Source: Candidatus Sungbacteria bacterium RIFCSPHIGHO2_02_FULL_52_23 (lineage in GTDB: Bacteria > Patescibacteriota > Minisyncoccia > Sungbacterales > HO2-52-23). Taken from it: DNA of 30,570 nt. The notes beneath the pieces were generated by a model that saw only the letters and a program-made list of their open reading frames with translations, was not told the origin of the DNA and searched no databases. Position numbers and translations under genes: made by a program. Location: contig MHQM01000025.1 in assembly GCA_001820655.1 (NCBI GenBank), positions 1-30,570 on the forward strand, written 5' to 3'. Positions 8,760-30,466 of this stretch are shown here, piece by piece. The stretch's first letter is position 1, and each line of letters opens with the position of its first letter.

Positions 8760-11327
8760 GTGGACAACGCGAATAAGCCCAGTACCAAATCCTTGGTCAA
8801 CACGACTCGCATCAGCGATCACTTTGGGGTAACTCCCGGGCAGGTCACGCGCGTATTCTCTTTTGGCATAATACCGACAAAGAGACAATACGCCATTATA
8901 GAACGGTGGTTTGCCGCGGTAGAGGCCGCGCGTGAGCGACTCTATGGAATGCTCTATGCGCATTTCCAAGAAAATCCCCCTGCCTACCTGAAAGAAAAAT
9001 TTTCGTACGAGACATTTTTCAAAGGCAGACCCGTACTTAACGGCCTCCGTGATATTGATCCCACGATCATGACATCTGCCGTTTTTACGGCACTACGGCA
9101 CAAGGCCGAAGGCGCGATGGCCGCATTCCACACCAACCACCGACGGCTTTTTGAGGAAGCCCGGAAGAAAATGCGGGAATACGCCGAATGCCTGAAGGCC
9201 AATGAGGCATTGCTCCGGGGTGCGGCGGACATAGATTGGGACAAAATTGTCAACGCCCTGCGTACCCGCCTCAATACCTGTCTGGCACCCGAGTACGATG
9301 CGGTGATTGCGGATTTTGGCGCACTGTGCGCATTCCGGGCGCTCATTGCAGAAACAAACGCTCTAAAAGGCGCGTACAACCACGCGCTCAATCAGATGCT
9401 TCCCGCTCTTGTGAAAGTGGATGAGCCGGAAGAAGCCGAGGAGTCGCCCCGTCTCCGATTCTTCAATGGGCGGATCAACGACCTTCCGAAATTTCCCGTT
9501 GCCGAGCGCGAGACGCCGCCGGATACCGAGACGATCATCCGGCAACTGGAAGATATGGCGCGGGTCATACCGGACACTGCCGAAATCCTCGGCTATATCC
9601 ATCGCATAAGGCATAAAGCCGCGCGCCGGAAGCCCGGAAGCGCCGTACCGCTACCCCAACGCGTCGCTCTCTACTGTGCGATCCGCATGGAAAGGAATCC
9701 CGAAGAAGATCCGTCAACGGTCGCCGGGCATTTCCTCGGCGAAATTGATCGGGTATGCGAAAAGCGCCGTCAAGGACTTGTCCGCACGCCTTTTGACAGC
9801 CAGATCAGGGCAAGATACATGGATATCATCTCTTTTCGCGCGACGCTCGCGCATCCTGACCGGTGGACCGAGATCCAGTTCCTCCGGAGCAATGCGGCAA
9901 GCAGAAGAGTACGCGCCGAGACAATATCGGCCCCGTTTGAAGGGTTTTCATGGACGAGCAACCGGACAAATCCCGCGCCTCAGTACGGCATGGCGCTTGC
10001 CAAAGACGCTAATGCTCCGGCCGATGCCCCGGAGTTGTGTATCTGTCTTTCTCCATCATCTGCCGCATTCTCTGTCAGAGAAAAAGGAGGAGATTTGATC
10101 TATATGAGACCGACCGGCGGCAGACGAGGCAAAGACAATCCGGGCAAAGAGATCACCTGGGTACCCGGATCTTTTGACGAGTACCCCGCATCCGGTGTAG
10201 CACTGAAACTCCGCCTTTATTTCGGCAGATCACAGGCGCGCAGAATGCTCACCAATAAAACGTGGGGCCTCTTGTCGGATAATCCGCGCGTATTCGCCGC
10301 CAACGCCGAGCTGGTGGGAAAAAAAAGAAATCCCCAAGACCGGTGGAAGTTATTCTTCCATATGGTAATCAGCGGACCTCCTCCGGTGGAGTATCTGGAT
10401 TTCTCCTCCGATGTGCGTTCCCGGGCCCGAACCGTCATCGGGATAAACCGCGGCGAGGTCAATCCGCTTGCCTATGCCGTGGTGTCTGTAGAGGATGGCC
10501 AAGTGCTTGAGGAGGGTCTTCTCGGCAAAAAAGAGTACATAGACCAGTTGATAGAGACCAGACGCCGGATCAGCGAGTACCAATCCCGCGAACAAACCCC
10601 GCCCCGCGATTTACGCCAGAGGGTCCGGCATCTGCAGGATACGGTTTTGGGAAGCGCCCGGGCAAAGATCCATTCGCTGATCGCATTCTGGAAGGGTATC
10701 CTCGCGATAGAACGGCTGGATGACCAGTTCCATGGCAGGGAGCAAAAGATTATTCCCAAAAAGACCTACCTTGCCAATAAAACGGGCTTTATGAACGCGT
10801 TGAGTTTTTCCGGCGCGGTCCGCGTTGACAAAAAAGGCAACCCATGGGGAGGTATGATAGAGATTTATCCGGGCGGCATTTCCCGCACCTGCACACAGTG
10901 CGGAACCGTCTGGCTTGCGAGGCGACCGAAAAATCCCGGACACCGCGACGCCATGGTGGTCATTCCCGATATCGTGGATGATGCGGCCGCAACGGGGTTT
11001 GACAACGTGGATTGCGATGCAGGCACTGTGGATTACGGGGAACTTTTTACGCTCAGTAGAGAGTGGGTCCGGCTGACTCCGCGTTATAGTCGCGTCATGC
11101 GGGGGACATTGGGAGACCTTGAACGGGCGATCCGGCAAGGAGATGATCGCAAGAGCAGACAAATGCTCGAGCTTGCGCTTGAGCCGCAACCGCAATGGGG
11201 GCAGTTTTTTTGCCACCGATGCGGATTCAACGGACAGTCCGACGTGCTGGCCGCGACCAATCTGGCGCGGCGCGCCATATCTTTGATCAGGCGCCTGCCG
11301 GATACTGATACTCCCCCAACCCCTTGA
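8760..11327 (+). CDS. Type V CRISPR effector, CasX/Cas12e-like, 855 aa, RuvC-I D>N (probably nuclease-dead)
   Basis: C-terminal split RuvC: VIGINRGEVNP (N563; CasX has IG(V/I)DRGENIP), LAIERL (E651), SRTCTQCG...FFCHRCG Zn fingers, QSDVLAATNLARR (D828). A CRISPR array lies 213 bp downstream. Confidence 0.88.
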   Translation: MDNANKPSTKSLVNTTRISDHFGVTPGQVTRVFSFGIIPTKRQYAIIERWFAAVEAARERLYGMLYAHFQENPPAYLKEKFSYETFFKGRPVLNGLRDIDPTIMTSAVFTALRHKAEGAMAAFHTNHRRLFEEARKKMREYAECLKANEALLRGAADIDWDKIVNALRTRLNTCLAPEYDAVIADFGALCAFRALIAETNALKGAYNHALNQMLPALVKVDEPEEAEESPRLRFFNGRINDLPKFPVAERETPPDTETIIRQLEDMARVIPDTAEILGYIHRIRHKAARRKPGSAVPLPQRVALYCAIRMERNPEEDPSTVAGHFLGEIDRVCEKRRQGLVRTPFDSQIRARYMDIISFRATLAHPDRWTEIQFLRSNAASRRVRAETISAPFEGFSWTSNRTNPAPQYGMALAKDANAPADAPELCICLSPSSAAFSVREKGGDLIYMRPTGGRRGKDNPGKEITWVPGSFDEYPASGVALKLRLYFGRSQARRMLTNKTWGLLSDNPRVFAANAELVGKKRNPQDRWKLFFHMVISGPPPVEYLDFSSDVRSRARTVIGINRGEVNPLAYAVVSVEDGQVLEEGLLGKKEYIDQLIETRRRISEYQSREQTPPRDLRQRVRHLQDTVLGSARAKIHSLIAFWKGILAIERLDDQFHGREQKIIPKKTYLANKTGFMNALSFSGAVRVDKKGNPWGGMIEIYPGGISRTCTQCGTVWLARRPKNPGHRDAMVVIPDIVDDAAATGFDNVDCDAGTVDYGELFTLSREWVRLTPRYSRVMRGTLGDLERAIRQGDDRKSRQMLELALEPQPQWGQFFCHRCGFNGQSDVLAATNLARRAISLIRRLPDTDTPPTP

Positions 11328-11352
11328 CAAGATAGCGGGATTAAGCTATCTT
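11324..11352 (+). promoter_or_regulatory. Promoter overlapping the cas12 stop codon, containing an inverted repeat
   Basis: TTGACA (11324-11329), N17, TATCTT (11347-11352). The inverted repeat AAGATAGC/GCTATCTT (11329-11336 / 11345-11352) overlaps both boxes. Confidence 0.65.
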
Positions 11353-11358
11353 CTTCCC

Positions 11359-11515
11359 CAAGCTCCTTATATAAGTAGTATCCATATAGAGGGGCCCATT
11401 GGCCGCTTTAAAATCGTTTCAACGGCCAATCCCCCGACCGGATTACCGGTCGGGTATAAAAGCTTCCTCTCATGAAAAGAGCCCTGTCTTCCTCGCGGAG
11501 ATAGGGCTCAAAAAA
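11359..11515 (+). ncRNA. Candidate tracr/scout-like RNA
   Basis: Non-coding stretch between effector and array with three hairpins (11398-11430, 8 bp; 11433-11454, 9 bp perfect; 11479-11509, 13 bp with 2 G-U) and short repeat-complementary segments. Boundaries and strand are inferred. Confidence 0.5.
11479..11509 (-). terminator. Possible intrinsic terminator for minus-strand transcription
   Basis: 13-bp stem followed on the minus strand by TTTT. On the plus strand it is followed by an A-run, so it is not a plus-strand terminator. Confidence 0.4.
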
Positions 11516-11540
11516 TTTAATGCTTGATGATCATATTCTC

Positions 11541-11764
11541 GTTTACACACTCCCTCTCATAGGGTGGCTCTTAGACGGGGCTGCTCATTACGGCTGTTGG
11601 GTTTACACACTCCCTCTCATGAGGTAACTCTTGGACTAGGCGTATCCAAGGCAACCTCGCATGTTTTTACATACCCCCTCTCATGGGATGGCTCTTAGAC
11701 GACCTCTTGGCTTCGGGGAACCTCCTGTTTACACACTCCCTCTCATGGGGGATGGCTCTTAGAC
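11541..11764. CRISPR. Degenerate CRISPR mini-array: 4 repeats (36, 36, 36, 38 nt), 3 spacers (24, 28, 26 nt)
   Basis: R1 11541-11576 GTTTACACACTCCCTCTCATAGGGTGGCTCTTAGAC; R2 11601-11636; R3 11665-11700; R4 11727-11764. Spacers 11577-11600, 11637-11664, 11701-11726. Orientation not resolved. Confidence 0.92.
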
Positions 11765-11893
11765 AGCGCCTTGAGCCTATCAAAGAGCTTTTGGGAATGT
11801 AGCGCAAAAGAATATTGAGCGCAAGAGACGCATAAAGACCAACATTTCCAGAAAGTTGGCAACGCAATGATTTATAAATCCAAATCTGCACGG

Positions 11894-13249
11894 CTATTGC
11901 GTAGCGTTTGAGATTGATCCCTTTCTTTTTTCTGCTAAAAACCTGGCCAATGCCGGCACAGCTATGCGCTCCTGTTTTGCCGTATCGCGATCGCGGACGG
12001 TTACAGTGTCGTCTTCCAATGTCTGATAATCCACGGTGATACAGTAGGGCGTGCCGATCTCGTCCTGCGCATAATAACGCTTGCCGATATTGCCGCGCGC
12101 GTCCCATGCGATACTGAATCCCCCTGCTTTGAGTTCCTTGTACACCTCGCCTGCCTTTTCCACGATCTGCGGACGGTTTGATACCAGAGGAAATACTGCG
12201 GCTTTGTAGGGCGCCAGGCGTGGCGGCAGTTTCAGATATACGCGCTTTCCTTTTTCGCTTTCCTCCTCGCGATACGCTTCAAGCAGTACCGCAAGCACTG
12301 TACGATCCACGCCCCATGTCGGCTCAATCACGTGCGGATAAAACGAATCTTCTCCTTCTTCGCGATACGGCGGCTCCTTGAAGTGATTTTTGAGGTCAAA
12401 GTCGCCGCGGTATGCGAGGCCATACAGTTCTTTTTTGCCGAACGGAAAGTCATACTCAAAATCCACCGTGCGTTTGGAGTAGTGCGCGCGCTCCCCGTCC
12501 GGGACTTCCAACTCATGCACACGCTCCATCGCGATCCCCATATCACTGATCCACGCGCGCATTTCGTTGAGCCAGTGCGCAAAATGGTCTTCCCATGATG
12601 CCTCGCGGACAAAATATTCTATCTCCATCTGCTCAAATTCGCGGGAGCGGAAGATAAAGTCGCGCGGGGTGATTTCGTTGCGGAATGCTTTGCCGATCTG
12701 CGCGATACCAAAAGGCAGAGTACGGCGCATGGTGTCCGTGATATTTTTGAAATTCACAAACATCCCCTGTGCGGTCTCGGGGCGCAAGTATGTCTGGCTT
12801 GCCGAATCCTCCACCGGGCCGACAAATGTGCGGAAAAGAAGATTGAAATTCCGCGCTTCGGAAAAATCTGCGCCCTCCGCCGCCCGGCCGTGCTCCCGCG
12901 CGTAATGTCCCGTCCATTCGTCTGTCTGATCGGCGCGAAAACGCTGATGGCATTTTTTGCACTCTACCAGAGGATCGGTAAATTCGCCGACATGGCCCGA
13001 TACTTCCCATACTTTCGGATTCATCACGATTGCAGTATCAATCCCCACCATGTCGTCGCGGGCACGCACAAATCTCCGCCACCACATTTCTTTGATGTTG
13101 TTTTTGAGCTCCACGCCCAAAGGCCCATAGTCCCAGGTACCGGCAAGCCCGCCGTATATCTCGGAAGCGGGAAAGACAAAGCCGCGCCGCTTGGCCAGGC
13201 TCACAATCTTTTCCATTGATACCGATGCATCTTCTGCGGCTTTGCTCAT
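11894..13249 (-). CDS. glyQS: Glycyl-tRNA synthetase, alpha2 (homodimeric) type
   Basis: KRRGFVFPASEIYGG, YLRPETAQG, FRNEITPRDFIFRSREFEQMEIE, HVIEPTWGVDR, DEIGTPYCITVD. Confidence 0.96.
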   Translation of the reverse strand: MSKAAEDASVSMEKIVSLAKRRGFVFPASEIYGGLAGTWDYGPLGVELKNNIKEMWWRRFVRARDDMVGIDTAIVMNPKVWEVSGHVGEFTDPLVECKKCHQRFRADQTDEWTGHYAREHGRAAEGADFSEARNFNLLFRTFVGPVEDSASQTYLRPETAQGMFVNFKNITDTMRRTLPFGIAQIGKAFRNEITPRDFIFRSREFEQMEIEYFVREASWEDHFAHWLNEMRAWISDMGIAMERVHELEVPDGERAHYSKRTVDFEYDFPFGKKELYGLAYRGDFDLKNHFKEPPYREEGEDSFYPHVIEPTWGVDRTVLAVLLEAYREEESEKGKRVYLKLPPRLAPYKAAVFPLVSNRPQIVEKAGEVYKELKAGGFSIAWDARGNIGKRYYAQDEIGTPYCITVDYQTLEDDTVTVRDRDTAKQERIAVPALARFLAEKRKGSISNATQ

Positions 13250-19557: not shown

Positions 19558-20103
19558 TTAAGATACTCTACCGATTGTCCCTTGCTCGCGGACGCTAAAG
19601 ATGTGTACCTTGCCCGCCAACGCCAAATCATCCAACAACGTAATAAAACTCACAGGGAGAGGACAATCACCTATCCACACACTTTTTTGAAAATGGCGAA
19701 AGCCGCACGTGATCAGCTCCGCACGCACGGCAGTTCGTTTTTGCCGTTCCCGTTCGGGGATATCAAAAATAACAAGTCGTGTAATTCCGTCACTTACGTT
19801 ATTTTCTATATTTGCTTCCACCTGATCTACCCGCGCTCTTCCCGCAGGCGACAAACGCCATTTCGCGTTTTTTCTGCCACCCATTCGGACAATCAATCCT
19901 TCTCGTTGCAAGCGCCACAAAATCGTCGATACCGTATGACGAGTAATTTTTCTTGACCGTTCCAAACCGAGCAGAGGACGCCACATATTGGCATAAGAAT
20001 ACTTTCTTGGGAAAAATGCGCCCAACGTCGCTTCACCAAGACCTCCTAAAATCTCAAGCGTCGCACGACCAATAGAGTATTTCTTTTCCTCCTGGTTTTT
20101 CAT
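19558..20103 (-). CDS. PaaX-like transcriptional regulator (wHTH plus Cas2-like domain)
   Basis: TILWRLQREGLI...WRLSPAG (wHTH) and RLVIFDIPERERQKR..VR.EL...GF...QKSVWI (PaaX central, Cas2-like domain). Confidence 0.8.
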   Translation of the reverse strand: MKNQEEKKYSIGRATLEILGGLGEATLGAFFPRKYSYANMWRPLLGLERSRKITRHTVSTILWRLQREGLIVRMGGRKNAKWRLSPAGRARVDQVEANIENNVSDGITRLVIFDIPERERQKRTAVRAELITCGFRHFQKSVWIGDCPLPVSFITLLDDLALAGKVHIFSVREQGTIGRVS

Positions 20104-21904: not shown

Positions 21905-22351
21905 ATGTCAGACCTTGCCGTCAACCGCCGCGCTACTTTTGACTACGAAATCATTGAAACATATGAGGCTGGTATCGCATTGCAGGGTTTTGAAGTAAAA
22001 GCCGTCAAAGCAGGGCGCATGAATCTGGCAGGCACGTTTGCCATCATCCGCGGGGATGAGGCATGGCTCGTCAATGCGTCCATTTCCCCATACCAGAGCG
22101 GCAATACGCCCGAAAAGTATGACCCCACGCGGCCGCGGCGGCTCCTCCTGCACAAAAAAGAGATCAAAGAGCTGATCGGAGCTACAGCCGAAAAAGGATT
22201 GACAATTGTGCCTTTAAAGGTGTACGCTGTACGCAATCGGATCAAGATCGCAATCGCTCTTGCACGACACAAAAAGAAAGCCGACAAACGCGAGACGATC
22301 AAGCGGCGTGAATCCGATAGAGAGATCCAACGAACTTTGAAATGGGGATGA
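21905..22351 (+). CDS. smpB: SsrA-binding protein
   Basis: NRRATFDYEIIETYEAGIALQGFEVKA, RPRRLLLHKKEI, KKKADKRETIKRRE. True start is ATG 21905, not the track's 21440. Confidence 0.96.
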   Translation: MSDLAVNRRATFDYEIIETYEAGIALQGFEVKAVKAGRMNLAGTFAIIRGDEAWLVNASISPYQSGNTPEKYDPTRPRRLLLHKKEIKELIGATAEKGLTIVPLKVYAVRNRIKIAIALARHKKKADKRETIKRRESDREIQRTLKWG

Positions 22352-22741
22352 CTGGCTTCGACGGGGATGAAAACGCCTGCAATCGGGCCGAGGACGCAGA
22401 GACACTCGTAAAACCCTCTGCAAACCAATACGTGCAAACGTATCTGAAGGCGCTGTAGCGGTTTCCGCCGACTTGTTCGGTGGTGCCGTGCGCGCCCCCG
22501 CATTTGCCTAATTTTTAGATAAATGCCATCCGTCTTTGGCGTTCGGGCTGAAGATTCACGGGTGTCATACTCCCGAACTTGATTCGCGGCATTTCGGGGC
22601 CGCGCGTGACACCTACCGGAACCCGGGACGGACTTTTTTGCTGAAATTCTATTTCCGCTCCGGCACAACAATTTCAGCTACGCCCGTAGCGATTGCCCGC
22701 GCGATTATTTTCGGACGAGGGTTCGATTCCCTCCATCTCCA
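22344..22741 (+). ncRNA. ssrA: tmRNA
   Basis: 5' GGGGATGACTGGCTTCGAC pairs with 3' CATCTCC-A; T-arm GAGGGTTCGATTCCCTC; tag ORF at 22434-22511; CCA not encoded. Confidence 0.93.
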
Positions 22742-22768
22742 TATCATACTTCTGTTTCTCGTTTAAAA

Positions 22769-28541: not shown

Positions 28542-29114
28542 CTAATCCTCAATCTTGTCCTTGGCGACGGCTTCCATGACTTTTGCCAGAAGTTTTTTCG
28601 GATCCGAATCAAAAACCACTTTCCCCGTGCCGCGATGCGCTTTTGCGAGCAGCTCTTCAAGCTCGTCTGCTATGCCGCCCGTGCCCGTCAGCACGCCTAT
28701 TGGTTTTTTGTCTTCAAATGCGATGGTAAATTCGTTCAACGTACCCATCCGTCCGCATGTGACGATCACGGCATCAGACGAGCGCGTCAGCAGGAGATTG
28801 CGCCCCGCGTAGCCGAAGCCCGTATAGATGATGATGTCGTGATTATCCAGAGGAAGCTGGTATTTTTTTACATGCTCCACTTCGGACGAAGCCGGGGAGA
28901 GTCCGATAACAAATCCGTTTTCTTCTTTGGCGCCCAGAGCGCCCCACAAGGGCGCGCCGGTTGTAGCCCCCGTCACCAAAACAGCACCTTGGCGCACGAT
29001 CTCGCGGCCAAGTTCTTTGGTCTTTTCAAGCGCATCGGGAGCGCAGTGGCCGGTTTCGGCAGCACCCGAAATGCAGATTTTATATTTGAGATGGATATGC
29101 CGTCCGTCTTTCAT
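28542..29114 (-). CDS. LOG-family protein (TIGR00725-like)
   Basis: ISGAAE, LVTGATTG, VIGLSP, GFGYAGRNLLL.RSSDAVI..GRMGTLNEF. Confidence 0.85.
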   Translation of the reverse strand: MKDGRHIHLKYKICISGAAETGHCAPDALEKTKELGREIVRQGAVLVTGATTGAPLWGALGAKEENGFVIGLSPASSEVEHVKKYQLPLDNHDIIIYTGFGYAGRNLLLTRSSDAVIVTCGRMGTLNEFTIAFEDKKPIGVLTGTGGIADELEELLAKAHRGTGKVVFDSDPKKLLAKVMEAVAKDKIED

Positions 29115-29134
29115 AGTGTCTTTAATACTATAGA

Positions 29135-30466
29135 TTATAGCGTGAACTTCTCCCCGCGCCTAGGGGCGGTGGCGGCTACACCCAGGCGATCCGCAATCTC
29201 CTGCTTGAAGCCAAGCGCTTGTTTCTCCTCGCCCTGTACGACAAATACGTGCTTGAGAGTATCGCGCTTCGGGTCTACAAAAGCATGCAGTTGCGCGTTG
29301 TCGGCATGCGCGGAAAATCCTCCGATCTGCCGCACTTCCGCGCGCACGGGAATCTCCTCATCCATGATCCGCACTTTTTCCGCTCCATCCACCAGCCGCC
29401 TGCCGAGCGATCCTGCAGCCTGATATCCGATGATGAGCAGGACGCTCTTGGGGTCCCCGAGATAGCGGCGCGCGTGATGCAGGATCCGCCCGCCCGTCAT
29501 CATGCCCGAGCCTGCCACGATGACTTTGGGTTGGCGCACGTCATTGATCGTCTTGGATTCGTCCACCGTCAGTGTGAAATGCAGTTCCTTGGAGCGAAAA
29601 AGATGCGGGTGCGCGCGGTACAGCGCCTTGATCTCTTCTTTGTACGCCTCCGGATGGCGCTCGTATACTTCGGTGATCCGTATCGCAAGCGGCGAATCCA
29701 CGTATACGGGCATCTGCGGGATTCTTTTCTGGTGCAGCATTTCGTTGAGCAGGAAAATAATATCCTGCGTGCGCTCGGTCGCAAACGCGGGTATCAGGAG
29801 CGTGCCGCCGCGAAATGCGACATCCTCTACCGCGCGCTCAAGCTTGAGCACCCGCTCCTCTGCGTCTTCATGGAGGCGCGTGCCGTATGCCGATTCGGTG
29901 ATCAGATAATCCAGATCGCCGATCTCGTCGGGCGGCGGCAGTAGGACAGACGGCACGTTGCCCAAATCTCCGGTAAACAGTATGCGCTTGCCTCCGGTCT
30001 CAATATACGCCATGGCAGATCCCAAAATATGCCCCGCATCAAAAAGCGTGAGCTCGGCGTCTTTGATCGTACGGCTGGCGCGGTACGTCATGTCCTCCCA
30101 AAGACCAAATGTCTGCTCAATATCCTTGGCGCTGAAGAGCGCATTCTCTTCGCGCTCGGCCAGATGTAGCGCGTCCTCCAATAGCACGCGCGCGAGCTCG
30201 CGAGTCGCGGAGGTCGCGAGGATCACGCCACGGAAACCCTCATGTACCAGCTTCGGGAGCCTCCCGATATGGTCAATATGTGCGTGCGTGATCACGACCG
30301 CATCAGGCGAGGACGGGTCAAAGCCGAAAGGCTCAAAGTTCATATCCTCAATCTCGCGCGAGCCCTGAAACATCCCGCAATCCACGAGAATTTTTGCGCC
30401 GCCCGTCTCAAGCAGATGACATGCGCCGGTTACTTCTTGTGCACCTCCATGAAAAGAAATTTGCAT
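29135..30466 (-). CDS. MBL-fold metallo-hydrolase, beta-CASP RNA-processing type
   Basis: GGAQEVTGACHL, LVDCG, HAHIDH, AGHILGS, TGDLG, ESAYG, FSAHAD. Confidence 0.92.
   Translation of the reverse strand: MQISFHGGAQEVTGACHLLETGGAKILVDCGMFQGSREIEDMNFEPFGFDPSSPDAVVITHAHIDHIGRLPKLVHEGFRGVILATSATRELARVLLEDALHLAEREENALFSAKDIEQTFGLWEDMTYRASRTIKDAELTLFDAGHILGSAMAYIETGGKRILFTGDLGNVPSVLLPPPDEIGDLDYLITESAYGTRLHEDAEERVLKLERAVEDVAFRGGTLLIPAFATERTQDIIFLLNEMLHQKRIPQMPVYVDSPLAIRITEVYERHPEAYKEEIKALYRAHPHLFRSKELHFTLTVDESKTINDVRQPKVIVAGSGMMTGGRILHHARRYLGDPKSVLLIIGYQAAGSLGRRLVDGAEKVRIMDEEIPVRAEVRQIGGFSAHADNAQLHAFVDPKRDTLKHVFVVQGEEKQALGFKQEIADRLGVAATAPRRGEKFTL

Follow-up and report, generated by a model that had tools for sequence, protein, structure and literature searches.

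A CRISPR array in which all four repeats differ and the spacers measure only 24-28 nt raises the question of what the array does and of what has kept its repeats recognisable. The original prediction for this locus was an old array kept for fixed targets, regulatory or directed against mobile genetic elements, with a hairpin inside each repeat preserved through drift. The material considered here comprises the window (the whole stretch of 30,570 nucleotides that contains the array), the genome to which it belongs, a sister species of the same genus (G001) that carries the cassette in the same synteny, and further Cas12e loci.

The locus and its host

The window is one entire contig of a 695-kb genome (51 contigs, 52% G+C, 87.7% complete), whose host is an ultra-small groundwater CPR (Sungbacteria-like) bacterium with a genome of ~0.7 Mb. 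The cas12e cassette is set among housekeeping genes, these being the genes for an M16 peptidase and a class II aminoacyl-tRNA synthetase, which neighbour the cas12e locus, and those for IleRS, RecO and tmRNA, the last of which is the sole Rfam match at gathering thresholds.

8760-11327, plus strand: cas12e (CasX-like), 855 aa, stand-alone, matched by NCBIfam and PADLOC profiles
22344-22744, plus strand: tmRNA gene, full length (Rfam RF00023, 140.9 bits)

The array itself, at 11541-11764, consists of four repeats (36, 36, 36 and 38 nt; 4/4 distinct) and three spacers (24, 28 and 26 nt), with a regular unit period of 60-64 nt. Its elements are given here on the strand that is argued for below.

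11541-11576, minus strand: repeat R1, 36 nt, last repeat in the inferred reading direction
11577-11600, minus strand: spacer S1, 24 nt, common to the sister species
11601-11636, minus strand: repeat R2, 36 nt, which would guide S1 in the minus reading
11637-11664, minus strand: spacer S2, 28 nt, without counterpart in the searches made
11665-11700, minus strand: repeat R3, 36 nt, with a plus-strand start TTTT that gives a crRNA-sense end ...AAAA
11701-11726, minus strand: spacer S3, 26 nt, with marginal likeness to spacer 18 of G001
11727-11764, minus strand: repeat R4, 38 nt, leader-proximal in the inferred reading direction
11765-11863, minus strand: inferred leader, near-identical in the sister species

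The predicted coordinates, the unlikeness of the four repeats and the spacer lengths of 24-28 nt were all confirmed, and so were the identity of the first 20 nt of R1, R2 and R4 and the conservation of the plus-strand end CTCTT(A/G)GAC. The regular period, the absence of other copies of these repeats from the 695-kb genome in a script pattern search, the presence of an array in the sister species and the existence of independent metagenome contigs that match 11122-11755 without any difference establish that the array is genuine and not a product of chance. The leader differs from that of the sister species at 2 of its 99 nt (98% identical), while the region overall is ~10% different. The first 28 nt of this inferred leader, which have no second copy in the window's own genome, also find an 89% match at G001:C8:9355-9382 (E 0.004).

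A Cas12e effector with an altered RuvC site

The protein is recognised by the NCBIfam Cas12e/CasX equivalog NF045604 (726.5 bits against a cut-off of 200, E 5e-218) and by the PADLOC Cas12e model (1410 bits); its nearest solved structure is that of dVemCas12e (8xyc), and a word-index protein search with the effector returned only its own cluster. The RuvC D-E-D triad is not intact, since one of the three catalytic carboxylates is replaced: the RuvC-I motif reads GINRGE (N563), where 17/17 full-length homologues have G[IVLM]DRG. Two further substitutions, T707I and R810Q, give I707 and Q810 at positions where 17/17 homologues have T and R. The RuvC-II Glu (E651), the RuvC-III Asp (D828) and both CxxC pairs are kept. 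The orthologue of the sister species (90% amino-acid identity) is an intact gene with the same Asn at RuvC-I. RuvC-fold nucleases in which the RuvC-I Asp is changed to Asn lose their cutting activity or keep little of it. Guided binding without cleavage is proposed on the grounds of this Asn, of the changes to I707 and Q810 and of the purifying selection under which the gene stands: the effector probably binds DNA without cutting it, and it may keep some residual nuclease activity. The locus is thus a candidate for a natural 'dCasX', equipped with as many as 25 guides, in a genome of 0.7-0.9 Mb.

Substitutions at three family-invariant positions (N563, I707 and Q810) also speak for a decaying relic, in which adaptation has been lost, the nuclease has mutated, the array is shrinking and the repeats mutate freely, with nothing left functional. 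Against such decay, cas12e is intact in both species and shows a dN/dS of 0.23 over a dS of 0.20 between the window and G001; the genes next to it have values from 0.03 to 0.19.

A predicted tracrRNA gene between cas12e and the array

The 213 nt that separate cas12e from the array hold a promoter-like site, two stems, an anti-repeat and an 11-bp hairpin, which together make up a predicted tracrRNA gene.

11324-11352, plus strand: promoter-like TTGACA-17-TATCTT, which spans the stop codon of cas12e; putative promoter of the tracrRNA
11394-11515, plus strand: predicted conserved core of the tracrRNA, near-identical in the sister species and with a layout common to L011
11398-11405 / 11423-11430, plus strand: first tracrRNA stem, 8 bp, with a 17-nt loop carrying GUUU (11416-11419)
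11433-11441 / 11446-11454, plus strand: second tracrRNA stem, within the conserved core
11462-11474, plus strand: 13-nt anti-repeat GCTTCCTCTCATG, complementary to the repeat core as read from the minus strand
11479-11509, minus strand: 11-bp hairpin followed by UUUU (11478-11475), as read from the sequence

The promoter-like site is the only sigma-70-like site called within 11200-12000, and both of its hexamers are kept in the sister species. In L011, one of two metagenome contigs (L011 and L013) that carry a Cas12e of the same subclade at 31-32% identity, the sequence TTGACA-17-TAGATT stands at the equivalent position with respect to the end of the gene. The layout that follows is also matched in L011, with an 8-bp stem and 17-nt loop, a 3'-proximal anti-repeat and a hairpin, and in both contigs the promoter, the tracrRNA, the anti-repeat and the 3' tail of the repeat are arranged after cas12e as they are in the window. 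Between the two species, the tracrRNA core (~11394-11518) has a single substitution in ~125 nt, placed in the stem of the hairpin at 11479-11509, against a regional dS of 0.2-0.38, and the 35 nt before the core and the 25 nt after it diverge freely.

The transcript may start near 11359. The stretch from this predicted start to the conserved core, 11359-11393, differs between the two species at ~8 of its 35 positions, for which reason the functional tracrRNA may begin only near 11394 or may have its 5' end processed off. The hairpin at 11479-11509, which is followed by UUUU on the minus strand only, would act both as the terminator of the pre-crRNA and as the 3' hairpin of the tracrRNA; it has only four U after it and was not called by a simple terminator scan. 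A repeat-like element in direct orientation at ~11453-11488 was considered as a degenerate fifth repeat and rejected, as it is the anti-repeat of the tracrRNA. Right after the cas12e stop codon, between the promoter hexamers, lies an 8-bp inverted repeat (AAGATAGC / GCTATCTT, 11331-11354) with one mismatch in the sister species, which could be an operator or the terminator of cas12e.

Reading strand of the array and constraint on the repeats

The anti-repeat resembles the repeat on the same DNA strand, so the array would be transcribed in the direction opposite to that of the tracrRNA. This can be examined by counting pairs over the repeats of the window and G001. When they are read from the minus strand, 23 of the 30 repeats form 13/13 pairs with the anti-repeat (mean 12.7) and all non-Watson-Crick pairs are G·U. 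When they are read from the plus strand against a supposed tracrRNA of the minus strand, none of the 30 does so (mean 10.7), and the same positions turn into C·A. The difference between the two counts has a Wilcoxon p of 6e-7, computed on repeats that are not independent of one another. The same asymmetry is found in L013 (16-17 of 17 pairs against 10-12) and weakly in L011. When whole repeats were set against the whole tracrRNA with RNAduplex, the minus reading gave -26.5, the plus reading -20.9 and shuffles -20.5 kcal/mol, although this program draws messy long-range duplexes and the explicit count over 13 bp is the cleaner test of the strand.

The comparison with relatives points the same way. 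In L011 and L013 one strand carries both anti-repeat and array, and the repeats have the form GT(C/A)T...AAAC or ...CAAC; it is the minus strand of the window that gives a reading of this GT(C/A)T...AAAC type. The plus-strand start GTTT (TTTT in R3) then becomes a repeat end ...AAAC that adjoins the guide and is complementary to the GUUU in the tracrRNA loop; the counterpart of this contact between tail and loop in L011 is CUAAAAC against GUUUUAG. The UUUU that follows the hairpin on the minus strand only and the leader-like conservation of the 99 nt to the right of R4 are in keeping with this reading too. The array thus appears to be transcribed from the minus strand, where no consensus promoter was called within 11200-12000, and to converge on the plus-strand tracrRNA; the strand of the crRNA, the ends of the RNAs and their processing are likewise predictions from sequence. 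A test based on the asymmetry of G·U pairs can orient tracrRNA-dependent arrays whose repeats vary, and it needs no RNA data. Repeat finders or readers that expect identical repeats and follow rules based on a GTTT start would mis-call this array and its strand and, with them, all of its guides.

The plus-strand reading that underlay the original prediction is thus probably wrong, given full pairing with the anti-repeat in 23 of 30 repeats on one strand and in none on the other. Since the pairing works only on the minus strand, the conserved first 20 nt represent the 3' part of the repeat, beside the guide. The supposed variable 3' arm and the CTCTT(A/G)GAC block become its 5' part, upstream of the 13-bp duplex; the earlier observation stands in so far as the differences do fall mainly between the two conserved blocks.

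The internal CCCTC/GGG hairpin, proposed as the feature preserved by drift, was not borne out. A central hairpin of 3-7 bp can be drawn in most repeats, and yet the mean folding energy is no stronger than that of shuffled sequences, either on the plus strand (-6.05 against -3.9 kcal/mol, z -1.0) or on the minus strand (-5.67 against -4.8 kcal/mol, z -0.4), and z falls below -2 in only 2/30 and 1/30 repeats, respectively. A tracrRNA-independent hairpin repeat of the Cas12a kind was rejected for the same lack of a significant fold, and because the supposed 5' arm is the core that pairs with the tracrRNA. To judge by these counts, what drift maintains is the pairing of the repeat core with the tracrRNA anti-repeat, not a stem within the repeat. 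The general expectation of a genuine but non-standard array, with repeats that have drifted under a constraint of RNA pairing, was correct.

Repeat divergence in the sister species

28674-30254 of G001:C1 (L006): G001 array, syntenic with the array of the window

This array occupies the same site and takes up ~1.6 kb of a 0.9-Mb genome. It holds 26 repeats, 26/26 of them distinct, and 25 spacers, which are mostly 25-26 nt long and, apart from two of 32 and 35 nt, lie between 24 and 28 nt. Unlike repeats thus characterise the lineage and are no quirk of the four-repeat array. R1 differs from G001 repeat 14 at 3/36 positions and is taken as its orthologue because both flank a shared spacer, and the rare variant ...TAACTC.TGGAC is common to R2 and G001 repeat 15. 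Among the 24 G001 repeats of exactly 36 nt, the mean pairwise identity is 79%. The variation is confined to ~14 positions, at which the common variants are mostly transitions, and ~22 of the 36 plus-strand positions (1-4, 7, 10, 13-19, 23-25, 30-32 and 34-35) are essentially fixed. Thirty natural repeat variants, for which a single tracrRNA and a single compact Cas12e presumably suffice, reveal the positions of the repeat that are needed, and amount to a natural mutational scan of use for guide design in a family that is already employed in genome editing.

Further aspects of the relic explanation can be weighed here. In its favour are the small number of spacers remaining in the window (three, where the sister species has 25), the repeats that are all unlike and the fact that no targets were found. 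In opposition to it, the repeat changes spare ~22 positions and keep a strand-specific pairing with the tracrRNA, synonymous sites in the surroundings have diverged far more than the tracrRNA core and the leader, and G001 has retained a 1.6-kb array in a streamlined 0.9-Mb genome. The dN/dS of cas12e (0.23), the conservation of the tracrRNA and leader and the strand-specific constraint on the repeats together argue that the system is not a dead relic, and this explanation is held to be improbable.

Serial copying from the leader would lower the similarity of the repeats with distance, and no such gradient was detected along the 26 units of the G001 array (Spearman 0.04, permutation p 0.7). Units 4, 9, 12, 16 and 24, which are not adjacent, have identical spacer-side 12 nt; the leader-side 15 nt are identical between units 3 and 12, as they are between units 13 and 18. 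With identical half-repeats recurring in non-adjacent units, the variants look mosaic rather than tree-like, and such recurrence is not predicted by simple independent drift. Additionally, unit 17 is a truncated repeat of 27 nt (G001:C1 29237-29263), and the 35-nt 'spacer' 25 (28710-28744) ends in the partial repeat start GTTTACGCCC; both look like scars of deletions or of faulty joins within the array. The Cas12e query found nothing in G002 and G003, two genomes of the same genus that are 86-91% complete; with no Cas12e seen in two of the four genomes, the cassette is not universal in the genus.

Adaptation genes and repeat uniformity

No Cas1 was found in the genome of the window (87.7% complete) or in the three other genomes of the genus, the four being 86-92% complete, and no cas4-cas1-cas2 module was found in the Cas12e locus of the window. 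Weak Pfam matches to Cas2 and Cas4 elsewhere in the genome correspond, respectively, to PaaX-type proteins (PaaX_M) and to a 414-aa generic PD-(D/E)XK protein (PDDEXK_1). The genome has three PaaX-type paralogues with a Cas2-like central domain (PF20803), none of which adjoins the array:

19558-20103 of the window, minus strand: PaaX-type paralogue with PF20803, source of a weak Cas2 Pfam match
1189-1740 of contig C31 (L001): PaaX-type paralogue with PF20803, likewise
1399-1986 of contig C34 (L002): PaaX-type paralogue with PF20803, likewise

As candidates for an adaptation Cas2 these proteins were rejected. Both array-bearing genomes are incomplete (87.7% and 92%), and cas1 and cas2 could lie on unbinned DNA.

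According to the ordinary view, spacer acquisition copies the leader-proximal repeat and in this way keeps the repeats identical. Among six Cas12e loci compared, a small sample whose members are not phylogenetically independent, the repeats are all distinct in the four where no cas1, cas2 or cas4 was found nearby (4/4 in the window, 26/26 in G001, 6/6 in L011 and 5/5 in L013), whereas they are uniform in the two that carry cas4-cas1-cas2 between cas12e and the array (8 identical repeats in L009 and 34 of 36 identical in L010). This contrast supports the notion that acquisition keeps repeats identical, without proving it.

Spacer sharing, turnover and targets

The spacers of the two species are shared only in part. 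S1 corresponds to G001 spacer 14 at 23/24 nt (alignment score 22, against 2.1 ± 1.6 for shuffles), S2 has no counterpart among the G001 spacers, and S3 is marginally like G001 spacer 18 (score 7.5, against a maximum of 6.5 in 200 shuffles). The window has 3 spacers and G001 has 25, and the shared S1, which in the minus reading is the leader-distal spacer of the window, has a copy in G001 that is preceded, from the leader, by 11 private spacers and followed by 13 more.

In the host genome, no off-array match of at least 14 nt was found for the spacers of the window, and their longest internal match averages 11.68 nt, compared with 11.69 nt for shuffled spacers; self-targets were not found in G001-G003 either. 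The 20-23 nt cores of S1-S3 have no exact match in IMG/VR, and a blastn comparison of both arrays with collections of phages and plasmids yielded chance-level matches only (E 0.7-9), so that no target above chance emerged from the searches proposed at the outset. Six single matches to a repeat-core pattern in IMG/VR, none of them in an array, were taken as chance.

These data bear on the original explanation, namely a fixed-target array that regulates host genes or a resident element, is read from the plus strand and keeps its hairpin by compensating drift. The conservation of 23 of the 24 nt of S1 between species with a synonymous divergence of 0.2-0.38 would agree with it, as would the central hairpin of 3-7 bp that most repeats allow. 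However, just one of three spacers is shared, the arrays number 4 and 26 repeats, and extra spacers occur at the R4 end elsewhere (see below), which does not suit an array kept for fixed targets. A regulatory role is left without support by self-matches that are no longer than those of shuffled spacers, the hairpin is not significant against shuffles, and 0/30 plus-strand repeats pair fully with the complement of the anti-repeat. This explanation is largely refuted and must be considered very improbable; targeting of mobile genetic elements is possible.

Three metagenome runs from three studies contain short contigs, recruited at a likeness of at least 85% and with no repeat differences flagged, in which position 11764 is joined back to 11726/11727. 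In X5 and X8 the joint runs across the same 24 letters, and in X9 across 26 letters that are different from these. Taken at face value, the joints indicate that other strains carry additional units at the R4 end, and they may come from related strains with longer arrays. Extra spacers between repeats apparently identical to R4 look like recent acquisition, which sits badly with an absence of adaptation and raises the question of how the array renews itself when no Cas1 or Cas2 is found.

An explanation that takes this literally holds that the array still gains spacers at a low rate at the R4 end, through an integrase acting in trans (encoded on unbinned DNA, by a mobile element or in another cell line) or by some other mechanism, with acquisitions that are rare relative to the mutation rate. 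Besides the joints in X5, X8 and X9, it draws on the leader-distal position of the only shared spacer, with the 11 private spacers to its leader side in G001, and on the relatives at 31-32% identity, whose quite different repeats and spacer lengths indicate that arrays have been renewed within the clade. It has to contend with four genomes of the genus that lack a detectable Cas1 and in which the Cas2 and Cas4 matches are of the PaaX and PD-(D/E)XK types, and with assembled repeats that are all distinct and show no gradient of similarity from the leader. Furthermore, the joints in short contigs may stem from strains with longer arrays, and differential loss explains the same data: what is known of the spacers is compatible with such loss from a long ancestral array and with polarised gain alike. 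Low-rate acquisition is therefore a possibility to be kept in mind, although a minority one.

Proposed mechanism

The explanation that is considered probable, taking all the evidence together, is that of a stand-alone type V-E cassette with an array read from the minus strand, whose repeats drift in the absence of adaptation while keeping their pairing with the tracrRNA, whose effector acts by binding only, and whose spacer content is not frozen. The cassette would consist of cas12e, the tracrRNA gene and the array. Transcription of the array would proceed on the minus strand from the leader at 11765-11863, with R4 first, and stop at the hairpin 11509-11479 and its UUUU. The core of each repeat, ~CAUGAGAGG(G/A)AG(U/C), would pair with the anti-repeat at 11462-11474 in a 13-bp duplex, with a second, probable contact between the AAAC at the 3' end of the repeat and the GUUU in the 17-nt loop of the tracrRNA.

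Without adaptation, nothing would re-copy the leader-proximal repeat, so that each repeat would drift alone, and selection would keep only those features that the tracrRNA and Cas12e need. The changes seen within the duplex are transitions, by which a Watson-Crick pair gives way to G·U or is restored. The spacer content is not the same in the two species, nor among strains that occur together, and the differences lie chiefly towards the leader; the guides would direct DNA binding without cutting, thereby silencing foreign targets.

A bolder proposition, which is doubtful and offered only tentatively, is that this CPR lineage of Cas12e has become a non-cutting binder whose array is renewed at the leader end though neither genome encodes Cas1-Cas2. 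If it were true, acquisition would take place in trans or by a new route, and variation at ~40% of the repeat positions would be tolerated because a single tracrRNA reads all variants through wobble pairing.

Comparison with known type V systems

By its effector and its tracrRNA, the locus is of type V-E. Canonical members of this type include DpbCas12e, PlmCas12e and the compact VemCas12e and LesCas12e (PMC11685505), and type V-E has been described as stably associated with cas1/2/4 (PMC10691335). The window shares with them, L009 and L010 included, the effector family, a tracrRNA with a 3'-proximal anti-repeat, repeats of 36-37 nt and a repeat 3' tail beside the guide. Absent from it are the adaptation module, uniform repeats (all are distinct), the repeat end ...ATCAAAG (...GUAAAC in the window, against the canonical ...AUCAAAG in RNA), spacers of ~30 nt or more and an intact D-E-D triad, the RuvC-I Asp being Asn; additionally, its array faces the tracrRNA. 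The shortness of the spacers, emphasised in the original prediction, is real in relation to the 29-46 nt of the two canonical loci L009 and L010, although those of L013 also measure 23-27 nt.

The OpbCas12e locus is similar, as it is reported to have no adaptation module and to carry a tracrRNA gene between cas12e and the array (PMC11685505). It differs in that OpbCas12e is reported there as an active nuclease that interferes with plasmids, and in that the text consulted speaks neither of unlike repeats nor of a mutated active site (PMC11685505).

Arrays without adaptation genes of their own are known elsewhere in type V. Cas12c is a binding-only effector with such an array. RNA-guided binding together with an array lacking its own adaptation genes has also been described for Cas12k (CAST) and Cas12m, and alteration of the catalytic site is listed for Cas12a, Cas12k, Cas12f, V-M and some V-U groups, but not for Cas12e (PMC10691335). 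By analogy, the present cassette would resemble Cas12k, Cas12m and Cas12c in its array without adaptation genes and in the binding-only action proposed here, whereas those effectors belong to other Cas12 lineages and here one of three catalytic carboxylates is replaced.

A literature search for Cas12e in Sungbacteria, for unlike repeats in type V arrays and for a mutated Cas12e active site found no description. What is new here is the sister array of 26 units that are all different, the map of constraint on the repeat, the strand test based on G·U pairs, the contrast between loci with and without adaptation genes and the evidence of spacer turnover.

Close parallels are found in L011 and L013, where cas12e likewise stands alone, accompanied by a tracrRNA and a short array; the repeats are unlike, their variants keep a wobble-tolerant pairing with the anti-repeat of their own locus, and in L013 the spacers are of similar length. 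Both differ from the window in having kept the RuvC-I Asp and in having the array on the strand of the tracrRNA, and the spacers of L011 are ~35 nt long.
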